From Thermoplasmatales archaeon SW_10_69_26 (GTDB lineage Archaea; Thermoplasmatota; SW-10-69-26): a stretch of 52,540 nt of DNA. This document shows, piece by piece, positions 22,116-52,540 of the stretch. The notes beneath the pieces are model-generated. The model worked only from the letters and a program-made list of their open reading frames with translations. It did not search any database and had not been told where the DNA came from. Each line of letters begins with the position of its first letter. Position 1 is the stretch's first letter. The stretch covers positions 10,943 to 63,482 of the forward strand of contig PXUB01000002.1 of the NCBI GenBank assembly GCA_003009755.1, given 5' to 3'. The translations under genes were made by a program, and so were the position numbers.

Positions 22116-22188
22116 GCGGGTGTGGTCTAATCTGGTAGGACAGAAGCTTCCCATGCTTCTAGTCCGGGTTCAAATCCCGGCACCCGCA
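22116..22188 (+). tRNA. tRNA-Gly (CCC)
   Basis: Acceptor GCGGGTG/CACCCGC + A; anticodon stem GAAGC/GCTTC with loop TT-CCC-AT; T-arm CCGGGTTCAAATCCCGG; no encoded CCA, no intron. Confidence 0.96.
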
Positions 22189-22268
22189 CTTCTCCATCAG
22201 ACCCCATAGCAGTGCCACGTGCGGGTGCCGGGAGAGGACGCCCGACCACAGCCACCGCCGAGGGCGTC
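22172..22268 (+). repeat. attL direct repeat (tRNA 3' end + 80 bp)
   Basis: 93/97 identical to 26630-26726. Confidence 0.92.
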
Positions 22269-22468
22269 CGTATCGCCAGCATCCTTGGCCGGGGGAACCG
22301 CACGGTCGGATGCTGGCGAGCGGGCGGATCCCCGATCCGCCCTGATCCGGAGATCAGCCTCGTCCACCAAGCCATCGGCTGATCTCCGAGGCACCCGCAT
22401 CCAGCCAGGCCGGGATTTGCGGCCGTCCTCCGGAGGGTCCGACCGCGGCAGATCGTCGGACCCGGGGG

Positions 22469-23552
22469 TCATCGGACACCACCTCCACGGAGGCGGGGGA
22501 CGTGTTCGGTGTCCATCTCGGCCCGGGCGCGGGCTCGGTCCAGGTAGTGTTTCTCGACGGTGCGAACCTCGTCTCCAAGCGCCTGGGCGACCTTGTAGAC
22601 GTTGAACTCGGTAGCGATGAGAAACTCGGTGGCGACGTACCGCCGCATCTTGTACGGGTGGAACCCCGGCCAGACGCGCTTGCCGACCCGGGACAACTCC
22701 GTCTGGAGGTAGTGATCTGTCCACCGCTTTCCGTCCAGCTTAACGAACACGGCATCCTTGTCCGCATCAGCCTGGTCGCGATGGTGGTCGATGTAGTTGC
22801 CCAGACTCTTGCTGTTCGGCGCGTCGAGGACGTAACTGGGTAGCGGCATCCGGCGTCGGTTGCCGCCTTTCTTCTTCTCCGTGACGACGATCTCTCCGGC
22901 GTCACGGTCTACGTCGTCCAAGTCGAGCGCCGCGATCTCGCTGGGGGCTCGCACCCCGGTGTGGAAGCCGAAGTGGAACACGTAGGCCAGCGTCGTCCGC
23001 TTGAACGGGGACAGATCGTGGCCCCAATCCTCCTCGGCGGTCCAGACGTCCGGGGCAAGCTCGGGCTCCGGAAGGGTCCGAGTCGGCTCAGGCTCTCGGA
23101 ACTGAGGGTTCAAGCACTCCCATACGTCCTAACCCGAGGAACTTGAGCAAGCTCTTGAGCGCCTTCCGGTAGTGGTTCAGCGCGCTCCCGGTGGCCCCGT
23201 TCTCCATCCGGAGGAGGACGTGGTCTTGCCAGCTATCCTCGCTCGGCGGTCGGAGCGAGACGGGCGCGTCCTCGTGGTGCTCAAGGAACCGGATGTATCG
23301 GACCCGGCAGTCGGCGGTCCCAGGGGCTAGCCCCTGGCTGGCCACCATGTGCCGGCGGAACTCCTCGTAGGTCCCCTCGGTCAGCTCGGGGTTCTCGTTG
23401 TGCAACTCCCCAAGGCCAGCCAGTTCGATCAGGCCCGCGTCTCGCAGCTTGAGGAGCGTCTTGATCTCCTCAGGCCGAAGGTCCACGGTGGACGCCGCCT
23501 GTTGGGCGTTTGCAGCGTCCTGCAGAGTCAGATCGTCATCACTGCGGGACAT
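22469..23552 (-). pseudogene. Tyrosine recombinase/integrase with a one-base frameshift near 23130
   Basis: N-terminal SAM-like domain (ORF 23088-23720) continues in another frame as DVWECLNPQF...; motifs TGVRAPSE, HPYKMRR, LGD, KHYL. Confidence 0.85.
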
Positions 23553-23813
23553 CTCGGTGCCCTTCTGGGCAAGATGAGACATTTTCGTGACACTCTGCTC
23601 GGCTCCGGTTAGCGAGTGGGTCGTTGAGCATTGCCAACCACCTCGCCCGGAGCTACCGTTCTCGGTCTGCAGGTCGATTGCGGTCAATGCAGACCCAGAC
23701 AGCTCCCCAGGAGCAATCAAGCCCAGAAATTTCTACGTTAAGCCTAAAAGAGTAAGGTATGACGGGGAAAGCCTCTCTCCCCGAAAAAGAGGTCAGGCGG
23801 AGTTGGGGGAGAT

Positions 23814-25070
23814 CTAGAAAGGCCCAAGACGCTCTTGACCGGAACGCTCGATACTCTCGCTCAGGTCGTAGTCTTCGAAATTAAGCCCGAACTCCTCCTT
23901 GTACTCAAGCCGCTTGTCGATGGCGTCCGCCGAGAACAGGACGTTGAGATCCTGCTCTATCTCCTCGATGTATGAACGATCCTCATCAATGTTTGCGAAT
24001 CGTTCCTGGATGGGGGAGCAATCGTGGATCTCCGTGCCGACCCATTTACGACCCATCAGCTCGGCGGCGACGTAGGTTGTCCCTGCTCCACCGAATGGAT
24101 CGAGGACTCTGTCTCCCTGTTCGGTGGCCATTCCGATCACTCTGTGGAGAAGCTTCAGACTGAGTTGGTTGGCGTCACGGTGGAGGTATCTCTTGTGGCG
24201 GACGGGTGGAATGTCATCCCAGACATCGGTCAGATTCACCCCCTTTGGGTTCATCTTTGATTTGTATCCTCCGTAGTCATTCTGCTCACCTCCGCAGTGG
24301 GGGCAAGTGTCGATGGGAAGCCGGTCTGGATCGAACGTTTCGGGGGAACCCCCCTTTACAAAGTACAGGAGAGAATAATGAGATGGATAGAGACGGCCAG
24401 GGATCGGGAGTCCGAACTTGATGTCTACCGTAATCCAATGGCGAAGAGTGAGCCGTCGGGAAATGTAGTCTCCAAAATGGATATTCCATTTTGGCAGGTT
24501 ATACAGGAAGAAAGCACCTCCCGGCCGGAGAAGGCGGATAGCCTCGTCGATCCACTCGGTGGACCATCGGAGGTATTCATCTTCCGCAAGGTCGTCCCCG
24601 TTTTCTTCTCCATAGTCCTTGTCAAGATTGAATGGAGGATCTGCGAAGATCAGGTCAAAGGACTCTTCCTCTAGTTGCGGTAAAACATCGCGGCAGTCGG
24701 CGTTGTATAACTTGCCTCGCTCGGTACTGAAGATGGGTTCTGGAAGGCCACCCCCGGGGCCCTGCTCAAGAGTCTCCACATCGTATGCTTCCTCAAGTGC
24801 CTCAAGCCCTCTGTCGGGGTCTTCGACAAGAGCCTGCTGTAGCCGCTCCGGGAACTCGCCAGTTAGCAGATGGATCGCTTCGGGGGAATATTCTAGGGCC
24901 GATGCCAAGTCTTGGAGCTGGCTGTCCGTGGGGGGCACCCCTTCCTCGATGTCCCTTAGGGTGCCCACACGGAGGCCGGCTTCCTTCGCGAGCTCATTAT
25001 CGCTAAGGCCTTGCTTCCGACGGAGGCGGCTCACGACGTCGCCGGCCGAACGGAAAAGGAGGCCGGTCAT
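23814..25070 (-). CDS. XRE-HTH fused beta-class amino-DNA methyltransferase (likely m4C, M.BamHI-like)
   Basis: N-terminal 'LRRKQGLSDNELAKEAGL..TLRDIEEG'; FADPPFN precedes VLDPFGGAGTT; CPHCG insert. Confidence 0.92.
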   Translation of the reverse strand: MTGLLFRSAGDVVSRLRRKQGLSDNELAKEAGLRVGTLRDIEEGVPPTDSQLQDLASALEYSPEAIHLLTGEFPERLQQALVEDPDRGLEALEEAYDVETLEQGPGGGLPEPIFSTERGKLYNADCRDVLPQLEEESFDLIFADPPFNLDKDYGEENGDDLAEDEYLRWSTEWIDEAIRLLRPGGAFFLYNLPKWNIHFGDYISRRLTLRHWITVDIKFGLPIPGRLYPSHYSLLYFVKGGSPETFDPDRLPIDTCPHCGGEQNDYGGYKSKMNPKGVNLTDVWDDIPPVRHKRYLHRDANQLSLKLLHRVIGMATEQGDRVLDPFGGAGTTYVAAELMGRKWVGTEIHDCSPIQERFANIDEDRSYIEEIEQDLNVLFSADAIDKRLEYKEEFGLNFEDYDLSESIERSGQERLGPF

Positions 25071-25104
25071 TTCAGACTCTCCCTGCGAAGCGTCACAAGC
25101 CAGT

Positions 25105-25221
25105 CATCCATGGATGGGGCTTTACTCATTGGGTCCCTGATAGGTCCGACCACCCCTTTATTCCTTTCATTGGACGGTGAAAGGTCTGGTGCTTCGCTAG
25201 TAATATGCTGACCGTGGTCAG
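25105..25221. promoter_or_regulatory. Divergent M/R control region with two palindromes
   Basis: CATCCATGGATG (25105-25116) and CTGACC-GT-GGTCAG (25208-25221); AT-rich TAATAT at 25201, about 30 bp before the GTG at 25234. Confidence 0.5.
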
Positions 25222-25233
25222 TGGGATGGAGCA

Positions 25234-25467
25234 GTGGGCCGCAACCGAGACGATTTCAGCGGCCGGTACACACCGGAATTCACCGATGAAGACTTCCTAG
25301 AGGCAGTTGAAAGTATAGAGTCGGGCTCCACGGCAGATATCGCCGAGAAAGTAGGTTGCTCCCCGGATCTCGCCTACCGCCGGCTGCGGGATCTAGCTGA
25401 GGAGGGTCGAGTCGGCTCCGAGAAAATCGCAGGAAACTTTCGATGGTTCCCGACCCATGAGAATTGA
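25234..25467 (+). CDS. Small winged-HTH regulator (controller candidate)
   Basis: 'TADIAEKVGCSPDLAYRRLRDLAEEGRV' wHTH; overlaps the REase start. Confidence 0.8.
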   Translation: MGRNRDDFSGRYTPEFTDEDFLEAVESIESGSTADIAEKVGCSPDLAYRRLRDLAEEGRVGSEKIAGNFRWFPTHEN

Positions 25468-26179
25468 CCAGGCACACACCCTTATTGACGAGGGAGATCT
25501 CTCGTCAACACGAGTCTGGCGTCGTGCGCGCCAGGATGTACTCGGCGCAGTTGAGGATGTCGTCTGGCCCCCGGATAACGATGAGTTCGTTGTCTATCCT
25601 GAAGAAAACGCGAATGGCGTTAACCCGATCACCGAGCAATTCGAGCCCAACCTGGACGCTTTGCCTGACTGGGAGGAAACCGGAAGAACACACCTCACGA
25701 CCCTACTGGATCGTCGGGGCATGCTGGAACGAACGATTGAGAAGGTCAGACCCTATTTCCATGACCCCCAGTCGTTCCTGAATAGCCCGTGGTTCGACGG
25801 GCTCAAAGACGTGGAGATCGACGGTGAGCCCGGCCTAATTGTGGCTGAGTGGGAAACAGGCAACATATCCTCTAGCCACCGCTCAGTCAATCGAATCATG
25901 GTCGGCCTGGTCGCCGGCATGATCCACGGCGGATTTATCGTCCTCCCCAACCGATCTCTGTACCACTACTTGACGGACCGGATCGGGAATTACCGAGAGT
26001 TGAGGCCCTACTTCGTAATATGGGAGTCTCTTGCTCACAAAGTTGAGAACGGAGTTATTGAGGTAATCGTTGTAGAACACGAGGGAGAATCTAAGGCCGT
26101 CCGCCCGATCGGGAAACTTACCGACGGTATGTCGGACAGGGAGGAACGGGGCATTGACGAGAGGGTGGATTGGGAGTAG
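25457..26179 (+). CDS. Type II restriction endonuclease, BamHI family
   Basis: NGVNPI, D...EWETGNISSSHRS, YLTDRIGNYRELRPYF and C-terminal TDGMS match BamHI signatures. Confidence 0.9.
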   Translation: MRIDQAHTLIDEGDLSSTRVWRRARQDVLGAVEDVVWPPDNDEFVVYPEENANGVNPITEQFEPNLDALPDWEETGRTHLTTLLDRRGMLERTIEKVRPYFHDPQSFLNSPWFDGLKDVEIDGEPGLIVAEWETGNISSSHRSVNRIMVGLVAGMIHGGFIVLPNRSLYHYLTDRIGNYRELRPYFVIWESLAHKVENGVIEVIVVEHEGESKAVRPIGKLTDGMSDREERGIDERVDWE

Positions 26180-26629
26180 ACCTCATAGAGTTCCGCATTG
26201 CGGTGGCTGGTTATTGAACGGGGCCGAGAGGAAGTGGTTGGCAATCGTGCGGGGTTCCCGGCCCCTGCATTGACCGAACTGCAGCAATCCTGAGCATGGG
26301 CTAAAACCCTGCTTTTGTAGCAGCCGTTATCAAAGAGCAAGCCTTTCCTCCGGACGGCAATTGTGCGGAAGAGCGGCCGCCGGCGGTCTCCGGGATTCGA
26401 TCATCTCAGGGCCTACGAGGCGATGAGACGACTGGTGGAAGAGAAGAAGAGGAGGCACCCTCGCGGGTGCTAGGCAGAACGCTGTCTTCCCGGCAGCAGC
26501 CACCATGCTCCTCTGTCGGCGTCCGTCCCTCCTGAGATCGAGAACGCGCCCGGCCGGGATTTGAACCCCTGGGTTCATCGTCGGACCGAGCTTGCGAGGT
26601 CCGACGAGAGTACGGCCGCAGGCCGCACG

Positions 26630-26726
26630 AAATCCCGACACCCGCACTTCTCCAGCAAACCTCATAGCAGTGCCACGTGCGGGTGCCGGGAGAGGACGCC
26701 CGACCACAGCCACCGCCGAGGGCGTC
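26630..26726 (+). repeat. attR direct repeat
   Basis: Copy of 22172-22268 with 4 mismatches, all in the first 33 bp. Confidence 0.92.
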
Positions 26727-33104: not shown

Positions 33105-33337
33105 GTAGGTCAGGGACGCGGGGGCCTGTGTAGCGAACGGATCGAAGATCCGTCCTCTGCGGAGACGCCGGGCGGTTGGCGTCGACGCCTCCGCACGCTG
33201 CCGAGTTCCTTCCGAAGCCCAGCACAGGAGGACGGCCTGCGCAGCGGCCCACGCCCCTCTTCGGCCAGATCGTTGCCAGGGATCTTCCGTTGTCCCCTCG
33301 GCAGGCGCCGAGGCCCCGTCGAGAGAGGCTGGCTCTA
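33105..33337 (-). repeat. Structured dispersed repeat, copy A
   Basis: Homologous to 48359-48532; stems GGGGCCT/AGGCCCC and CTGCCGAG/CTCGGCAG. Confidence 0.75.
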
Positions 33338-46703: not shown

Positions 46704-47354
46704 GTGAGCGACCGCTGGTACGTCGAACACGACGGTCGCGTGCTCGTGACCCACGACGGGGATACGATCACGCTGCCGGCCGAGGACGAGGTCACCGTCC
46801 CCGTCCAGCGGTACAACGAGCGCACGCTGCGAGGGACGGCGGTCGTGTTCGGGCAAGCCGAGCTCGACGAGCACCCGCACGAGTGGCCGCGCAAGGACGA
46901 TCTCGTGCACGATCCCGACAGCTCGCGCCTGCTCCGCCACGCCATCTCGGCCAGCCTGTTCCGACCGGTGTGCGGGGTCGTCGTCCGCAACGGCGACGAG
47001 ATCTTGCTCGTGAAGCCCAAGCGCGGCGTCGCCAGCGGTGTCTGGACGCTGCCCGGCGGGTTCCTGCACGCCTTCGAGCAACCGGCCGAGGGCGCCCGAC
47101 GCGAGGTCCGGGAGGAGACCGGGCTCGAGATCACCGACGTCAGCCTCGAGGCCACCGTCTCCTACACGCACGACACCCAACCCTACCCGATCCTCGGCCT
47201 CGGGTTCACCGCCCACCCCGCCAGCGAGGACATCCAGCTGCAGGCCGGCGAGATCGACGACGCCAAGTGGGAGCCCGCCGAGGCCGCGGTCGAGCACAGC
47301 TACGGGCTCGCGCGCAAGGTGCTGCGGGACCTGCTGGAGGGGTCGAGCCCGTGA
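46704..47354 (+). CDS. NUDIX hydrolase
   Basis: Nudix box GG....EQPAEGARREVREETGL; SD AAGGAGGT. Confidence 0.88.
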   Translation: MSDRWYVEHDGRVLVTHDGDTITLPAEDEVTVPVQRYNERTLRGTAVVFGQAELDEHPHEWPRKDDLVHDPDSSRLLRHAISASLFRPVCGVVVRNGDEILLVKPKRGVASGVWTLPGGFLHAFEQPAEGARREVREETGLEITDVSLEATVSYTHDTQPYPILGLGFTAHPASEDIQLQAGEIDDAKWEPAEAAVEHSYGLARKVLRDLLEGSSP

Positions 47355-48361: not shown

Positions 48362-48532
48362 AGCATTTTTCTTTCGACGGGGCCTCGACGCCTGCCGAGG
48401 GGGGACAAAGAAAAATCCTCGGCAACAATCTGGCCGAAGCGGCGCTTCGGCCGCTCCGGAGACCGTGACATCCACGCCGGTCGCCGGAAGAAACCCCCTC
48501 GGCAGCGATGCAGGCCCCAACGTCGCTGATCT
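48359..48532 (+). repeat. Structured dispersed repeat, copy B
   Basis: Homologous to the reverse complement of 33105-33337; 12-bp stem 48392-48403/48494-48505. Confidence 0.75.
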
Positions 48533-49034
48533 TGGACGCGGTTGGATCTTCGCGCAGGGCTATCTCCGCCTGACGGGTAACGACGCGATCGCCGTGTCGG
48601 CCCCACGCCCCAAGATGTGGATGGCGGCCAGAGCTCGGAGCAGCCCCCGGTGCCGACGCGAACGCGCCTCGACGAGGGGGATCTCGAGATAGAGGCTACC
48701 GGTCAGCAGTGGTGCTGAACGCGGCCTTTCAATCGGGCTTCGTGCGGCCAACGGGCCGTGACCCGTCCATCTACCCCACCAAGCCAACCGGGAGAGACGG
48801 GTTGACCGAGAACGAAGAGGGCGCTCGGTGCCGCCGATCACCAGCTCGACCGTCCGGTCACGGACGACAAGGGCCCTTTCCCTTTAGCTCAGGCGTTGGC
48901 TGGCTTCATCTCGCGTCAGTTCGACCAGAGGGAGATGGCAGCCTCTATTGAGAGTCAACGATCAGCACCCAGAACAGAATGTCCCTGCGGGAATCACGGG
49001 CTTGATGGGGGGTTGGCGCTGGTCGTTTCTCCGT

Positions 49035-51077
49035 CTACGGAGACAGCGACGCGGACAGCAGATCGGCGATGCTAACGTCTCCGCATCCTCTGCCTTCCGA
49101 CGGACACGGTGTTGCCTCGCTCTGCGCGCCTTCCTGCCGGTCGACGTCACCATTGGATCCGTCGGCCGCGATGCACCCGGCCCCGTTGGACACGGTTCCC
49201 TGCCCCAGCGGTCCCGAGCCCCTGCAGGAATCCTTGCCGTGATCGTTCGAGGCGTTACCAGTCCCGCTCACGGCGACGCAGCCAGCCCCGAAGCTTGCTC
49301 CGCAGGAACCGTCGCCCGCCTCGTTGGAAGCGTTGCCCGTCCCGCTCACGGCCAGGCATCCCGCCCCGACGATCCCACAGGACGTGTCGCTCGCCTCGTT
49401 CGAGGCGTTGCCAGTTCCGCTCACGGCGATGCAGCCCGGTCCCCCCGCCCCGCAGGCGACATCTCCAGAGGCGCGGTTGGAGGCGTTGCCAGTCCCGCTC
49501 GCGGTCACGCAGGTGCGCTGGCCGTGGCACTCTTCTCCGCGTCCGTCGCCGGTCGCGCTGGCGGAGACCATCGTCCCGCAGCTGTCCTCTTCGATCGACG
49601 CGTCGACGCGCTCGCAACCGCGTTCATCGTTCCGCTGGTCGACCTCGATGCAGCCGACCCCGACGCGACCGCAGGAGGTCTCCCCCGCGTCGTTGGATGC
49701 GTTGCCGGTTCCGCTGGCGGCGACGCACCCGGCCCCTAAGAACCCGCACGATCGCTTGCCCGCATGGTTGGAGGCGTTGCCAGTCCCGCTAACGGCGATA
49801 CAGCTCACAGCGGCGAACCCGCAAGCCTGGTTACCGCCGCGGTTCGAGGCGTTGCCGGTCCCGCTCGCGGTCGCGCAGGTTCGCGTACCGTGACAGCGCT
49901 CGCCGCGTGCGTCGCCGGTCACGGTCGCACTGACCATCGTCCCGCAGCTGTCCTCGTCAACCCTGGCATCGACGCGCGGGCACTCGCCCTGACGAGGGGT
50001 AGAGTCGATAGCCAAGCAGCCTGCGCCCAAACGGCCGCAGGACTCGTCTCCGGCGCCGTTGGAGGCGTTTCCAGTGAGGCTGATAGAAATGCAGCCAACT
50101 CCGGAGACCCCGCACGCTTGGTCGCCGGCTCGATTGGAGGCGTTCTCCGTTCCGCTGACCGCGATGCAGCCAGCCACGGCAGCGAATCCGCAGCCACGGT
50201 CCTCGGCTCGGTTCGAGGCGTTGCCAGTCCCTGCGACCGCGATGCACCCGGCGACATCCCCGTGGCCGCAGGAAATGGAGCCAGCGCTGTTGGAGGCGTC
50301 TCCCGTTACGGTTGCTGCGACGCAGCCTGCGCCACCGAACCCGCAACCGCCATCCTCCGCGCGGTTGGCTGCATCGCCCGTGGCGCTGACGGCGAGGCAT
50401 CCGATTCCACCGTCGTAGCCGCATGCGTAGCTGCCAGCCTCGTTGGATGCGTTACCGCGGGGAGCAACGGCGACGCAGCCGACGGCTCCGTCCCCGCACG
50501 AGAAGTCCCCTGCCGAGTTGGAGGCGTTCCCAGTGCCGCTCACCGCGATGCAACCGATCGCGCCGTGCCCACAGGAGGCCGGTCCTCCCTGGTTCGATGC
50601 ATCGCCCGTCAAGGTCACCGCGAAACAACCGGCCCCGGGGAAGAATCCTGCGAGGATGACCGGGGGCGCTCCCCAACCGCAGGAGGCCTCCCCGGCTCGA
50701 TTGGAGGCGTTCCCTGTTCCGCTGATCGCGACGCATCCTGCTCCTGTGTCCGATCCGCAAGAGTTTCTCCCGGCATCGTTGGAGGCGTTCCCTGTACCGC
50801 TCACGGCTAGACATCCGGCACCGTTTCGACCGCAGGAGCTTTGGCCGGCCGAGTTGGAGGCGTTCCCCGTCCCGCTCGCGGTGATGCACGTGTCGGTTCC
50901 TCGGCACTCTGTTCCGTTCGCGTCGCCGGTGGTGCTGGCGCTCAGGGTCGACCCGCAGGTGTCCTCCTCGACCGAGACGTCGACGCTACCGCACTCCTCC
51001 GCCATCCCCCCGTCGACCACGGCGAGGAGGGACGCCGAAAGGAGGACGAGCAGGCCGATCTGCCTCGCCCAACGCAT
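49035..51077 (-). CDS. Secreted Cys-rich repeat protein (18 x ~25-aa SGTGNASN...CG..GC repeats)
   Basis: Signal peptide; 11+3+4 repeats, each block preceded by a ~40-aa 4-Cys module. Confidence 0.88.
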   Translation of the reverse strand: MRWARQIGLLVLLSASLLAVVDGGMAEECGSVDVSVEEDTCGSTLSASTTGDANGTECRGTDTCITASGTGNASNSAGQSSCGRNGAGCLAVSGTGNASNDAGRNSCGSDTGAGCVAISGTGNASNRAGEASCGWGAPPVILAGFFPGAGCFAVTLTGDASNQGGPASCGHGAIGCIAVSGTGNASNSAGDFSCGDGAVGCVAVAPRGNASNEAGSYACGYDGGIGCLAVSATGDAANRAEDGGCGFGGAGCVAATVTGDASNSAGSISCGHGDVAGCIAVAGTGNASNRAEDRGCGFAAVAGCIAVSGTENASNRAGDQACGVSGVGCISISLTGNASNGAGDESCGRLGAGCLAIDSTPRQGECPRVDARVDEDSCGTMVSATVTGDARGERCHGTRTCATASGTGNASNRGGNQACGFAAVSCIAVSGTGNASNHAGKRSCGFLGAGCVAASGTGNASNDAGETSCGRVGVGCIEVDQRNDERGCERVDASIEEDSCGTMVSASATGDGRGEECHGQRTCVTASGTGNASNRASGDVACGAGGPGCIAVSGTGNASNEASDTSCGIVGAGCLAVSGTGNASNEAGDGSCGASFGAGCVAVSGTGNASNDHGKDSCRGSGPLGQGTVSNGAGCIAADGSNGDVDRQEGAQSEATPCPSEGRGCGDVSIADLLSASLSP

Positions 51078-51374
51078 CTTGAGCCCCTCGGACCGGCTGG
51101 GCGGCGGTTAAGGGTTGGCGTGTGACGGACCGAGGTGCCCCCCCCCCGTTCTGTGGTGCTGGCGGGCAACCAACCACCCTTCGGCCTACTCGAAGCACGA
51201 ACCAACCTCCACGCACATGACGGTGATGTCCGGCCCGCCGGGCGCGACGGCTCGGGCGAACCCAGGACTCCAGGCAACCCGGTCTAAGCGGTCCACCACG
51301 GCCGCAATCGAACACGAAGCCCACCCAGGAACGCCGATGCCGCAAGCCCCCTACAGACGTCGATTACCCTCGCC

Positions 51375-52476
51375 TCATCGGGGGGAAGCGGTCATGAAGC
51401 CGACCCCCGGCGGGCCGTGAGGCTTGATCTTCAACCGCTTGTTCTCCGTCGTACTCGGATTCTGCCAGGAACACTCCTCGCCCTTCGTCCACACCGCGTA
51501 CACCGTGTTGCACATCTTCCCACGCGCACGCCCCAACGCGCTGCTGCGAAGCTTGCCACGCCCCCATCTGCCGCTGATACATCGCATTCACCAGGTTCCC
51601 ACCCTTCGTCTTCGTCGCCGCCGACTCCGCCGCGATCCCCACCGCCGCCTTCACCCGCTCGTTGCACCGCGACACCGGCCCCTCCTGCCGCGCCGGCCCA
51701 CCACTTTGCCGATTCCGCGGAGCTCCCCCCGCATACGAACGGAACTGATCGATCGTGTCGAACCTGTCCATCGACCCGACCTCATACCGAAGCACCGCGG
51801 CATTGTGGAGACCTACGCCGGGGATCGAGACCAGCCGGTCGACGATCGCATCCTCCACGATCAACCCGGCCACCATCGCATCCAGCTCCTCCACCGGCTC
51901 CAAGGCCTCGATCTGCGCCAAGTGCGCCTCCATCAACGACCGCGCCTTCGGATCCAGCTCCTGCTGCCGAAGCCACGCTCGACCCTTCTCCCCGTACAGA
52001 GCATCGGAACCGAACGGCGGATCAATCCCCTCCCGACGCAAATACGAACCCAAGCGCTGCTTGGCCTGCGTGCACTGCTCCACGACGTCTTTCCTCGCGC
52101 GAATCAACTCGCGGGCCTCCAACACCGACGGGTCCGGGATGTTGACCTCAGGGAACTTGTCGATCCGCACCAGATCCGCGATCTCGAAGGCGTCCTTGCC
52201 GTCGAACGTCTGATCGCACTGCCAGATCGTCTTCATCCGCTTCGAGTCGCCAAGACGGACCGTGTAGTCTCGTTCGACCAGGTAGTCCTGCACCGGGTAT
52301 GCGAGGGTGCCGACCTCGAGCCCGATCGGCGTCTGTTCGTCGACGAGTTCGGTCAGCTCGTCGTACCCGGGCTCCGTGTTCGGCAGCTGATCTTCGAGGG
52401 CGATGGTGCCCGTCGTGTCGACGACGCACAGGTCCAGGCGGTTGTTGCTGATGTCGATGCCGGCGTAGTGATCCAT
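51375..52476 (-). mobile_element. IS110-family transposase/recombinase, frameshifted near the C-terminus
   Basis: YAGID, LEVG and DGKDA of the DEDD domain; SIPGVG, YAG..P...QSG; C-terminus continues in ORF 51375-51587 (KMCNTVYAVW). Confidence 0.88.
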
Positions 52477-52540
52477 GCGGGTCTCCTCCAAGCAGGCCGG
52501 CGTGCGCGGCCCCGTGCGAATCGGGCCGCGCCTCAAGGAG

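Follow-up and report, generated by a model that had tools for sequence, protein, structure and literature searches.

A rare family of cysteine-rich repeat proteins, represented in a salt-crust archaeon and predicted to form beta-solenoids with probably disulfide-closed loops

In the insect antifreeze protein TmAFP, coils of 12-13 residues with a TCT motif carry roughly one disulfide per coil. Insect antifreeze proteins are well known for such per-coil bracing; to our knowledge, it is hardly documented in prokaryotes. Two further solenoids are relevant here. Region IV (RIV) of MpAFP has an xGTGND turn and an ice-binding site which is an array of outward-pointing Thr and Asx residues, as described in the accessible parts of PMC3492233 and PMC6891781. 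For curlin, PMC10192328 describes the kernel N-$-Psi-$-Psi-$-Q-x-G-x-x, in which Asn stands at the strand starts and Gln residues form ladders. We compare these systems with a protein from a salt-crust archaeon, the gene of which is located in a window of 52,540 nt (the whole stretch of DNA that was analysed). This gene is an open reading frame on the minus strand which starts with ATG and codes for 680 residues followed by a stop codon. Its features are listed below, with coordinates referring to the window.

49035..51077, minus strand: whole open reading frame, coding for the predicted secreted, Cys-rich repeat protein P0001 (680 residues)
51003..51077, minus strand: putative Sec-type signal peptide, residues 1-25 with a putative cleavage site (sequence reading; AF2 helix at residues 2-19)
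50877..50996, minus strand: cap 1, residues 28-67, a four-Cys module predicted to combine a beta-hairpin with a degenerate first coil (AF2 strands)
49998..50876, minus strand: solenoid 1, residues 68-360, repeats 1-11 (motif positions and AF2)
50628..50678, minus strand: residues 134-150, a hydrophobic loop of 17 residues inserted in repeat 3 (pLDDT <50)
49866..49985, minus strand: cap 2, residues 365-404, a four-Cys module
49635..49865, minus strand: solenoid 2, residues 405-481, repeats 12-14, with the terminator motif G-C-I-E-V at its end (motif and alignment)
49500..49619, minus strand: cap 3, residues 487-526, a four-Cys module (pLDDT 81-97 in AF2 of block 3 alone)
49158..49499, minus strand: solenoid 3, residues 527-640, repeats 15-18 (motif and AF2 of block 3)
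49038..49157, minus strand: acidic C-terminal tail, residues 641-680, with two Cys (low-confidence AF2 helix)

The protein contains 136 Gly, 103 Ala, 79 Ser, and 50 Cys and is acidic (66 Asp plus Glu vs. 32 Lys plus Arg). As read from the sequence, its N-terminus (MRWARQIGLLVLLSASLLAVV...) resembles a Sec signal and is devoid of a twin-arginine motif. The C-terminal tail has no transmembrane segment and terminates with ..ADLLSASLSP; similar ends (..LL..S[LV].[GP] or ..LLP) are found in both paralogues encoded in the same genome (C1 and C14) and in many relatives. C14 has 312 residues and a single solenoid. In cap 1, which is modelled with a pLDDT of about 95, AF2 places strands at residues 30-35, 40-48, 53-56, and 64-68.

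Each block is opened by a homologous 40-residue module with four Cys, and the three blocks have 11, 3, and 4 repeats. Eighteen copies of the motif [TR][GE][ND]A[SA]N were counted, the repeat unit having 25-26 residues except for repeat 3 (36 residues) and repeat 18 (with a 16-residue loop). All Cys could be assigned (36 to the repeats, 12 to the caps, 2 to the tail), and there are 16 sequons (15 NAS and one NGT). The loops between the two Cys of a repeat are all mutually different, with 12 of the 18 having six residues in the frame G-x-x-x-x-G. At the DNA level, periods of 75 and 78 nt were reported by Tandem Repeats Finder, and 8-10 in-register copies with 60%-79% identity were found by a repeat search. 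Because of these periods and copies, and because the same repeat is kept in 58 proteins elsewhere, the pattern cannot be attributed to chance. The open reading frame and the motif counts agree with an earlier note on this DNA, which had described the same anatomy, from the signal peptide and the four-Cys caps to the grouping of the repeats and the number of NAS sequons.

That note did not recognise the family, and database searches led to the same result: no family from Pfam-A or NCBIfam matches the protein at E <= 1, and sequence and profile searches of the PDB returned no match. The sequence is contained in the ESM Atlas, where a feature search gave no usable match and the neighbours (PE-PGRS, LRR-like, and others) stayed below the bar for naming a family. 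Literature searches on the repeat motif, on Cys-rich secreted repeats from Thermoplasmatota, on Thermoplasmatota from halite, and with general terms yielded no published description of this repeat. A search among 1,835,955,588 cluster representatives yielded 58 relatives, and a separate search yielded 15 matches. Judged by these searches, the repeat family is rare and is without an entry in the databases examined.

We delimit the family by a four-Cys cap (C..VD..V..D.CG...), a signal peptide, and three or more coils in which two Cys flank a loop; all of these are found in the 680-residue protein. The family pattern consists of the cap and of SGTG[ND]A[ST]N..C-loop-C coils, and related loci were retrieved with a seven-row alignment; a pattern search with the single protein gave 457 matches, none of them a relative. 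Family members were found in 10 of the 21 genomes that represent the class, and in none of 20 genomes from elsewhere in the phylum. According to record titles, the contigs of the relatives are mostly from Thermoplasmatota, with a few being bacterial. The module occurs fused to extracellular domains, namely an NHL propeller (P0004), a trypsin-like peptidase (P0006), and CARDB (P0014), and in P0041 a cap and two coils are fused to a right-handed beta-helix/NosD domain (PF13229). A separate search for longer, fused forms yielded none, which carries little weight.

Faster evolution compared to housekeeping genes was considered and rejected, as the best local identity to a genome of the same family (G001) is 55%, equal to that of phosphoglycerate kinase. 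Nudix genes adjoin the copy in the window and that of paralogue C1, and one is located about 4 kb away from the family member at locus L027. No functional logic was seen for a tie to the neighbouring Nudix gene, and the arrangement was treated as synteny or chance. A promoter and terminator scan returned no sites, its consensus being bacterial and uninformative for an archaeon, and the intergenic region downstream of the gene gave only sub-threshold matches to Rfam.

The Cys residues were counted coil by coil in a non-redundant set of 83 sequences from the family, which together have 488 coils. Two Cys are found in 456 coils, none in 10, four or six in 17, and an odd number in 5, so that the count is even for 483 of the 488. 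The pair which flanks the loop is kept or lost together. Among the Cys-free coils, nine have 12-16 residues and no loop; lengths of 28 and 33 residues were also recorded. The even counts and the missing loop in Cys-free coils fit with one loop-closing disulfide per coil. We thus consider it most likely that the two Cys of the arc form a single disulfide which closes a short Gly-rich loop, as had been envisaged in the earlier note.

AF2 predicts a thin beta-solenoid, each coil of which has two strands by DSSP; a beta-solenoid had also been proposed in the earlier note. Blocks 1 and 3 are modelled confidently (pLDDT 80-97), block 3 only as a separate model, and block 2 is never modelled with confidence. 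In the full-length model, pLDDT exceeds 70 for the most part, reaching 95, across residues 30-140, 170-250, and 270-350; it is 72-95 in most 10-residue blocks of solenoid 1, below 50 at residues 140-169 and 250-270, and below 50 in blocks 2 and 3. For block 3 alone, the mean pLDDT is 74.6, with 10-residue means of 77-97 (most of them >85) over fragment residues 11-140. A two-copy complex prediction of block 3 gave scores of 0.23 and 0.03 vs. a mark of 0.42 and is neutral with respect to self-association.

All structural neighbours obtained with VIA-align are solenoids, and their Z-scores fall within the range which the notes of this tool call common for repeats: curli CsgA (8c50_A, Z 17.4, rmsd 8.5, 267 aligned residues), MpAFP RIV (3p4g_A, Z 16.4, rmsd 4.2, 234 aligned), and then the adhesins EtpA and HMW1 and phage tailspikes (Z 13-15) for the full model; MpAFP RIV (3p4g_A, Z 9.2, rmsd 3.8, 138 aligned), CsgA (8c50_A, Z 8.7; 8enq_A, Z 8.5), RmAFP (6xnr, Z 8.0), and LpIBP (3ult, Z 7.7) for block 3 alone. 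Foldseek against the PDB returned nothing at E <= 0.001, neither for the full model nor for block 3. Curli CsgA and the region of MpAFP that binds ice are the nearest solved folds, with a match that is generic for solenoids.

We consider it reasonably probable that this is a Sec-exported, acidic, extracellular protein with three tandem beta-solenoid rods, which most likely serves as a passive scaffold or adhesin module. Each rod would consist of the 40-residue four-Cys cap and of 11, 3, or 4 coils with about 25 residues each. In a coil, strand 1 (C-[VIL]-A-[VI]-S) would be followed by a tight G-T-G turn, by strand 2 ([N/D]-A-[S/T]-N-x-A), and by an arc (G-x-x-S-C-G-(4-15 residues)-G-C) with the putative disulfide-closed loop at the corner of the coil. 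From the strand periodicity we infer that A11, N13, and A15, which are small or conserved, face the core opposite V/I3 and V/I5, and that the surface exposes a conserved stripe of polar residues (T8, N/D10, and S/T12). Oxidation after export would generate about 25 disulfides and thus a rigid rod which resists proteases and salt and which would bind or space things at the cell surface. Searches for a membrane anchor, for a sorting signal, and for a conserved operon partner were negative, and the terms "surface" and "adhesin" are therefore based on analogy and on the extracellular fusions of relatives.

A regular polar stripe might have a more specific role: the Thr/Asx/Ser ladder on a flat face could match halite, another evaporite mineral, or ordered water; the cell would then be anchored, or the growth of crystals modified, within the salt crust. 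The nearest folds include three ice-binding proteins, with MpAFP RIV ranking first or second and with RmAFP and LpIBP following for block 3; these matches are generic to thin solenoids, however, and curli and adhesins score equally. The stripe is well conserved (T8 in 403, N/D10 in 444, and S/T12 in 437 of 573 coils), as are other coil positions (C2 in 513, A4 in 498, S6 in 532, G9 in 553, A11 in 548, N13 in 487), but sequons in this stripe, if they are really glycosylated, would make the face non-flat. In sequence, the turn of the coil (G-T-G-N) is similar to xGTGND of MpAFP RIV (PMC3492233 and PMC6891781). A Ca2+-binding turn as in RTX beta-rolls (GGxGxD/xGTGND, motif from the same parts of PMC3492233 and PMC6891781) was considered and rejected, since its last Asp is replaced by Ala in 548 of 573 coils, which also speaks against a role like that of MpAFP. 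The gene occurs in the halite metagenomes of two studies, one of which is possibly its source while the other has it at about 99% identity; its relatives, however, are from sand, sediment, and soil-type MAGs according to record titles, so that the family is not halite-specific. We consider lattice binding unlikely for this protein. That the whole family represents a new class of prokaryotic lattice-binding proteins, in which a disulfide-stapled two-sheet solenoid docks its Thr/Asx/Ser stripe onto crystals or ordered water, appears very unlikely to us. If it were the case, a wall-poor archaeon could anchor itself to its crystalline evaporite habitat or even shape it.

With CsgA (8c50_A and 8enq_A) among the top structural neighbours, the solenoids might also be subunits of a curli-like functional fibre, joined at their ends to build extracellular filaments. 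The strand-arc-strand coil of about 25 residues and the Asn at the strand starts are reminiscent of the curlin kernel (PMC10192328, accessible part). Open-ended stacking should be blocked, however, by the cap with which each solenoid starts and by its terminator motif (G-C-[IV]-E-[VI]). In addition, Gln is missing from the conserved positions, so that there is no Gln ladder, Curlin_rpt does not match at E <= 1, and there are no csg-like partner genes nearby. We regard a fibre subunit as quite unlikely.

The earlier note took the NAS motif for a ladder of glycans. Prerequisites for an archaeal N-glycoprotein are in place, with 16 N-x-S/T sequons, predicted export, and two STT3 homologues in the host genome, so that glycosylation of this protein is possible. 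Across the family, however, position 10 (the Asn of the sequon) is occupied by Asp in 229 and by Asn in 215 of 573 coils. Sequons are found in 183 of the 573 coils, and in 82 of 250 coils from loci labelled archaeal. A bacterial member which is encoded beside a GGDEF-EAL gene has sequons in six of seven coils, and STT3 was not found in its genome. The glycan ladder as the basis of the motif is thus not supported. We rather interpret NAS as mainly a structural turn-and-strand element which may double as N-glycosylation sequon, its conservation probably not being due to glycosylation. With sequons in 15 of its 18 repeats, the 680-residue protein ranks near the top of the family in sequon share, and glycosylation could be weightier here than we assumed.

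According to the earlier note, the loops are hypervariable and the protein might diversify in the style of VLRs. It would then be a receptor which diversifies its loops in a VLR- or DGR-like manner. The loops are distinct from each other within the protein, and their lengths vary widely across the family, both of which would be expected for such a receptor. The most polymorphic spot of the gene is the insertion loop of repeat 3, with differences at residues 138-140; a variant from one other metagenome is shorter by a net 26 codons, which would fit such a receptor as well. Between orthologues and populations, however, the loops are kept. In an orthologue fragment with 85% identity, three of four loops are unchanged, including one with 16 residues, and the fourth differs at two positions. 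A second orthologue pair has retained all loop lengths, with 38% differences in loops vs. 35% in other non-framework parts. Contigs from the halite metagenomes of another study are about 99% identical to the gene, and 5 of the 21 retained differences are within loops, which account for 20% of the residues; 11 of the 21 are synonymous and 10 non-synonymous. As far as can be judged from such comparisons, the gene is under purifying selection and is stable across halite populations.

No machinery for diversification was detected either: RVT_1 has no match in the host genome, which is 95% complete, and the window has no template-like copy outside the gene. The DNA repeats within the gene must be old because they are only 60%-79% alike. 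We conclude from the sequence comparisons that the loops differ between repeats and accept insertions, and that they are nevertheless stable between orthologues and populations. The claimed hypervariability is thus valid for the comparison of repeats and not for that of orthologues or of the halite contigs, and VLR-style diversification could not be upheld. Loops that do not change between orthologues are one of the outcomes which the earlier note itself had named as refuting its reading. The diversifying receptor is already largely refuted by these data, and we consider it highly improbable.

The neighbourhood of some family members raises the question of a secreted serine protease, for which the protein might be a partner, a substrate-targeting module, or an inhibitor. 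Subtilase (Peptidase_S8) genes adjoin family members at loci L005 (that of paralogue C14), L014, and L020; a trypsin gene is located about 4 kb away at L024, and P0006 is a fusion of the module with a trypsin-like peptidase. The genome has 24 matches to S8, however, and as a rough estimate 0.4 adjacencies are expected by chance for about 25 loci. Neither L021, which is the orthologue of L020, nor the locus in the window has an S8 neighbour. We thus consider a relation to such a protease improbable.

The passive scaffold or adhesin module which we favour belongs to a newly defined, rare family, found in uncultured archaea of the Thermoplasmatota type and in a few bacteria, in which a cap is followed by 25-residue coils that are each apparently locked by their own disulfide. 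The coils tolerate loop insertions from 4 to more than 20 residues. This tolerance and the probable disulfide bracing make the protein an attractive scaffold for structural study and for protein engineering at high salt. The family also calls for caution: repeated N-x-S sites in a protein from an archaeon do not necessarily represent a ladder of glycans, and loops which differ between repeats are not necessarily hypervariable.

Among the known systems, the right-handed beta-helix adhesins and tailspikes (EtpA, 8VBA/8CPK; HMW1, 2ODL) are likewise extracellular solenoid rods, which in their case are adhesin stalks. Their coils have three strands and no disulfide of their own, and their cross-section is larger, whereas the 680-residue protein has two strands per coil by DSSP and no Pfam match which would make it a member of PbH1/PF13229. 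The insect antifreeze beta-helices (TmAFP; RmAFP, 6XNR) are similar in the narrow solenoid, which is braced by disulfides in TmAFP, and in the regular polar face, but they are eukaryotic, have shorter coils, and showed no sequence similarity in the PDB search. With MpAFP/MpIBP region IV (3P4G), the protein has in common the G-T-G-N turn and a repetitive Thr/Asx array, and its predicted fold may be a similar thin two-sheet solenoid. That region differs by 19-residue coils, the lack of Cys, and Ca2+-dependence, and is part of a bacterial type I secretion adhesin; at the sequence level, no match to it was found in the PDB sequence and profile searches. Curli CsgA (8C50, 8ENQ) has a similar strand-arc-strand coil of about 23-25 residues with Asn stabilising the arcs, as described in the accessible part of PMC10192328. 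Unlike CsgA, the 680-residue protein has neither a Gln ladder nor csg genes, its ends are capped, and each coil has a putative disulfide-closed loop. With capped ends and a disulfide loop per coil, it is probably a monomeric rod rather than an amyloid.

The minus-strand open reading frame at 49035..51077 encodes a protein of 680 residues which contains 50 Cys and is rich in Gly, Ala, and Ser. Scripts run on its translation confirmed the numbers of Cys, repeats, and sequons as well as the block layout given in the earlier note: the core motif occurs 18 times, and there are 16 N-x-S/T sequons (15 NAS and one NGT). The segments of the protein are as follows.

Residues 1 to ~25: signal peptide
Residues 28-67: cap 1 (a cap is the 4-Cys module which opens a solenoid block)
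Residues 68-360: repeats 1-11
Residues 365-404: cap 2
Residues 405-481: repeats 12-14
Residues 487-526: cap 3
Residues 527-640: repeats 15-18
Residues 641-680: acidic tail with two further Cys

All Cys are thus assigned (36 to the repeats, 12 to the caps, two to the tail). The loops between the paired Cys are all distinct among the 18 repeats (the earlier note had them differ in nearly every one); 12 of the 18 are six-residue loops with the frame G-x-x-x-x-G, and two are long insertion loops (17 and 16 residues). Tandem Repeats Finder detects periods of 75 and 78 nt in the gene. The DNA of the repeat copies is just 60-79% identical, which indicates that the array is old rather than freshly amplified.

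From 83 non-redundant family sequences, 488 coils (repeat units) were parsed with an HMM of the 16-residue core. Two Cys are found in 456 of these coils and four or six in 17, while 10 have none; nine of these ten measure only 12-16 residues and have no loop. An odd number occurs in only five coils. The Cys pair flanking the loop is therefore gained or lost jointly with the loop, as expected if each coil has one disulfide that closes its loop. The disulfide-closed loops proposed previously are supported by this pairing, and one such loop per coil is the most likely arrangement.

When the full protein was modelled with AlphaFold2 (36-row alignment), the mean pLDDT was 58.5. Within residues 30-140, 170-250, and 270-350, most means of 10-residue blocks exceed 70, with values of up to 95, and the model shows two short strands per coil. 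It is poor in blocks 2 and 3, probably owing to weak coverage of these parts by the alignment. Block 3 and the tail, modelled separately (30-row alignment), reached a mean pLDDT of 74.6, with 10-residue means of 77 to 97, most of them above 85, over fragment residues 11-140. The architecture is that of the full model; the tail is uncertain.

The protein has no match in Pfam-A or NCBIfam, even at E <= 1, and none among PDB sequences with either the protein or the family profile as query. The repeat was also not found in the literature searched, so that the family is indeed an unrecognised one. A word-indexed search for relatives gave 15 matches, and a search of 1.84 billion cluster representatives gave 58, of which 35 have E <= 1e-10. 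In the organism's class, a profile search matched 10 of 21 genomes; with the protein as query, no match was found in 20 other genomes of the phylum, many of which are incomplete. Of 17 loci recovered from a species-representative collection, 11 have contig titles naming Thermoplasmatota, Thermoplasmata, or Thermoplasmatales. The remaining titles are Solirubrobacterales/Solirubrobacteraceae (2), Proteobacteria (2), Burkholderiales (1), and Actinomycetota (1). One Proteobacteria title (locus L028) is doubtful and probably wrong because an Rpb7-N/S1 gene, an archaeal type of RNA polymerase subunit, adjoins the family member, as does DUF359. The Solirubrobacterales locus L024 is considered truly bacterial because a GGDEF-EAL-PAS gene lies alongside. 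We conclude that the repeat family is real, rare, and without a database entry.

The source genome itself codes for two single-solenoid paralogues (335 and ~312 aa) and, on contig C29 (L035 1120-2004, plus strand), for a distant, Cys-poor secreted version of 294 aa. Its units are 13-15 residues long (e.g., AVSGTGDA..), mostly without Cys and loops, and its C-terminus reads ..APLP. The protein resembles a reduced relative, suggesting that a simpler hairpin repeat acquired the disulfide loop by insertion.

The earlier note had taken the loops to be hypervariable, in the manner of VLR-type binding scaffolds. This did not hold up, as loop-focused diversification was seen in none of three comparisons. 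The orthologue fragment P0017 is identical to residues 472-680 at 178 of 209 positions, without gaps. Its loops 15, 16, and 18 (the latter of 16 residues) are unchanged and loop 17 differs at two positions; differences affect 2/19 labelled loop residues, 5/61 framework residues, and 22/116 others (loop 18 being unlabelled). In the more distant orthologue pair L020 and L021, 38% of loop, 24% of framework, and 35% of other positions differ, and every loop length but one is kept. Contigs from three halite metagenomes of a separate study span most of the gene at ~99% identity (e.g., nine differences in an 852-nt piece and four in a 920-nt piece). Of the 21 differences kept, 11 are synonymous; loops, with 20% of the residues, account for five. 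This comparison is limited in that contigs hide rare variants. The one structural polymorphism seen is in run X4, where a contig lacks 78 nt (26 codons) between 50632 and 50755. Roughly one coil is thereby lost in frame near the long loop of repeat 3, at the place where other runs differ as well (residues 138-140); this is ordinary repeat-number variation. No reverse transcriptase was found in the source genome and no template-like copy elsewhere in the window.

The proposed ladder of glycans on NAS sequons likewise fails as stated. Over 573 coils, the best-kept positions are G9 (553), A11 (548), S6 (532), C2 (513), A4 (498), and N13 (487), whereas position 10, the sequon Asn, is Asp in 229 and Asn in 215. 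The proportion of coils with a sequon ranges from 0 to 100% between members: 15/18 in the window protein, 5-6 of 8-9 in two paralogues, only 3/16 and 1/9 in other archaeal members, and 6/7 in the bacterial L024 protein, in whose genome (of unestablished completeness) the N-glycosylation component STT3 was not found. The Asp/Asn mix and the uneven sequon share argue that the motif is kept for structural reasons, so that the conserved feature would be an Asx opening strand 2. By strand periodicity, the invariant Asn, N13, should face the core, while N10 and S12 should point outward. With N10 and S12 so oriented and two STT3 homologues in the source genome, N-glycosylation of the window protein is plausible, and its high sequon share might have been selected for.

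The neighbours in the window are housekeeping or unrelated genes (RNase J, a secreted reelin-subrepeat protein, phosphoglycerate kinase, methionyl-tRNA synthetase, a Nudix hydrolase, a weak tocopherol-cyclase-like ORF), and no conserved partner gene was found across the relatives' loci. The following nearby genes were considered.

Window 51364-52536, minus strand: IS110-family transposase (DEDD_Tnp_IS110 + Transposase_20), directly upstream of the gene and on its strand
Window 46704-47354, plus strand: Nudix hydrolase beside the window copy
L003 822-1388, plus strand: Nudix hydrolase beside the paralogue on contig C1
L027 204-1502, minus strand: Nudix hydrolase ~4 kb from a relative of the same family
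L005 21-1268, plus strand: subtilase directly beside the paralogue on contig C14
L014 2796-3944, minus strand: subtilase directly beside a family member
L020 2586-4559, plus strand: subtilase directly beside a family member

The transposase may affect transcription of the gene. Proximity to Nudix hydrolases may be coincidence or old synteny, and the subtilases at three loci are only a weak lead because Peptidase_S8 is unusually frequent in the 2.8-Mb source genome (24 matches).

Downstream of the gene is a 670-nt gap in which two dispersed short repeat families occur (48370-48500 and 48881-48972); they look like MITE- or REP-type elements. The ~130-nt family has 19 genome matches, with an inverted copy at 33200-33330; the ~90-nt family, present in 5-7 copies of 88-92% identity, shows a depth spike in run X1 (68x vs 7x). 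Elsewhere, a 97-nt direct repeat (22172-22268 and 26630-26726, 96% identical), the first copy of which overlaps the 3' end of a tRNA gene (22116-22188), brackets ~4.4 kb of low-GC DNA (0.56-0.63 vs ~0.70). Judged by these features, 22116-26726 looks like a small element integrated at the tRNA.

Relatives show fusions to an NHL propeller, CARDB, a trypsin-like peptidase (P0006), and a PbH1/NosD helix, which indicates that the module serves as an extracellular building block. The window protein has neither a transmembrane anchor nor a known sorting signal. Many members share a short C-terminal ending, ..LLP or ..LL..S[LV].[PG] (e.g., ..DLLSASLSP, ..DLLSTSLEG, ..ELLTASVPG, ..LLP), with no membrane segment after it: the window protein (P0001), the L003 and L005 paralogues, P0018, P0019, P0033, P0034, L009, and L010. 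This ending may cap the solenoid at its C-terminus or act as a sorting or processing tag of a kind not yet recognised. The window protein is a secreted, capped beta-solenoid in which each coil most likely has a single loop closed by a disulfide; a rigid extracellular scaffold or adhesin module is the best reading of it.

Foldseek returned no significant match for either model. An exhaustive VIA-align search placed both among beta-solenoids, in agreement with the fold first proposed. The closest neighbours of the full model are CsgA (8c50_A; Z 17.4, rmsd 8.5, 267 aligned) and MpAFP region IV (3p4g_A; Z 16.4, rmsd 4.2, 234 aligned), followed at Z 13-15 by two-partner-secretion adhesins and phage tailspikes. 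Those of block 3 are 3p4g_A (Z 9.2), 8c50_A (8.7), 8enq_A (8.5), beetle antifreeze 6xnr (8.0), and ryegrass ice-binding protein 3ult (7.7). The tool itself cautions that Z values such as those of the two models are common for repeat folds. We read these neighbours as pointing to a thin two-sheet solenoid, not to homology. Ice or crystal binding, also suggested earlier, is a possible reading with no support beyond this resemblance: the likeness to the ice-binding proteins (MpAFP region IV, 6xnr, 3ult) is that of a generic solenoid fold.
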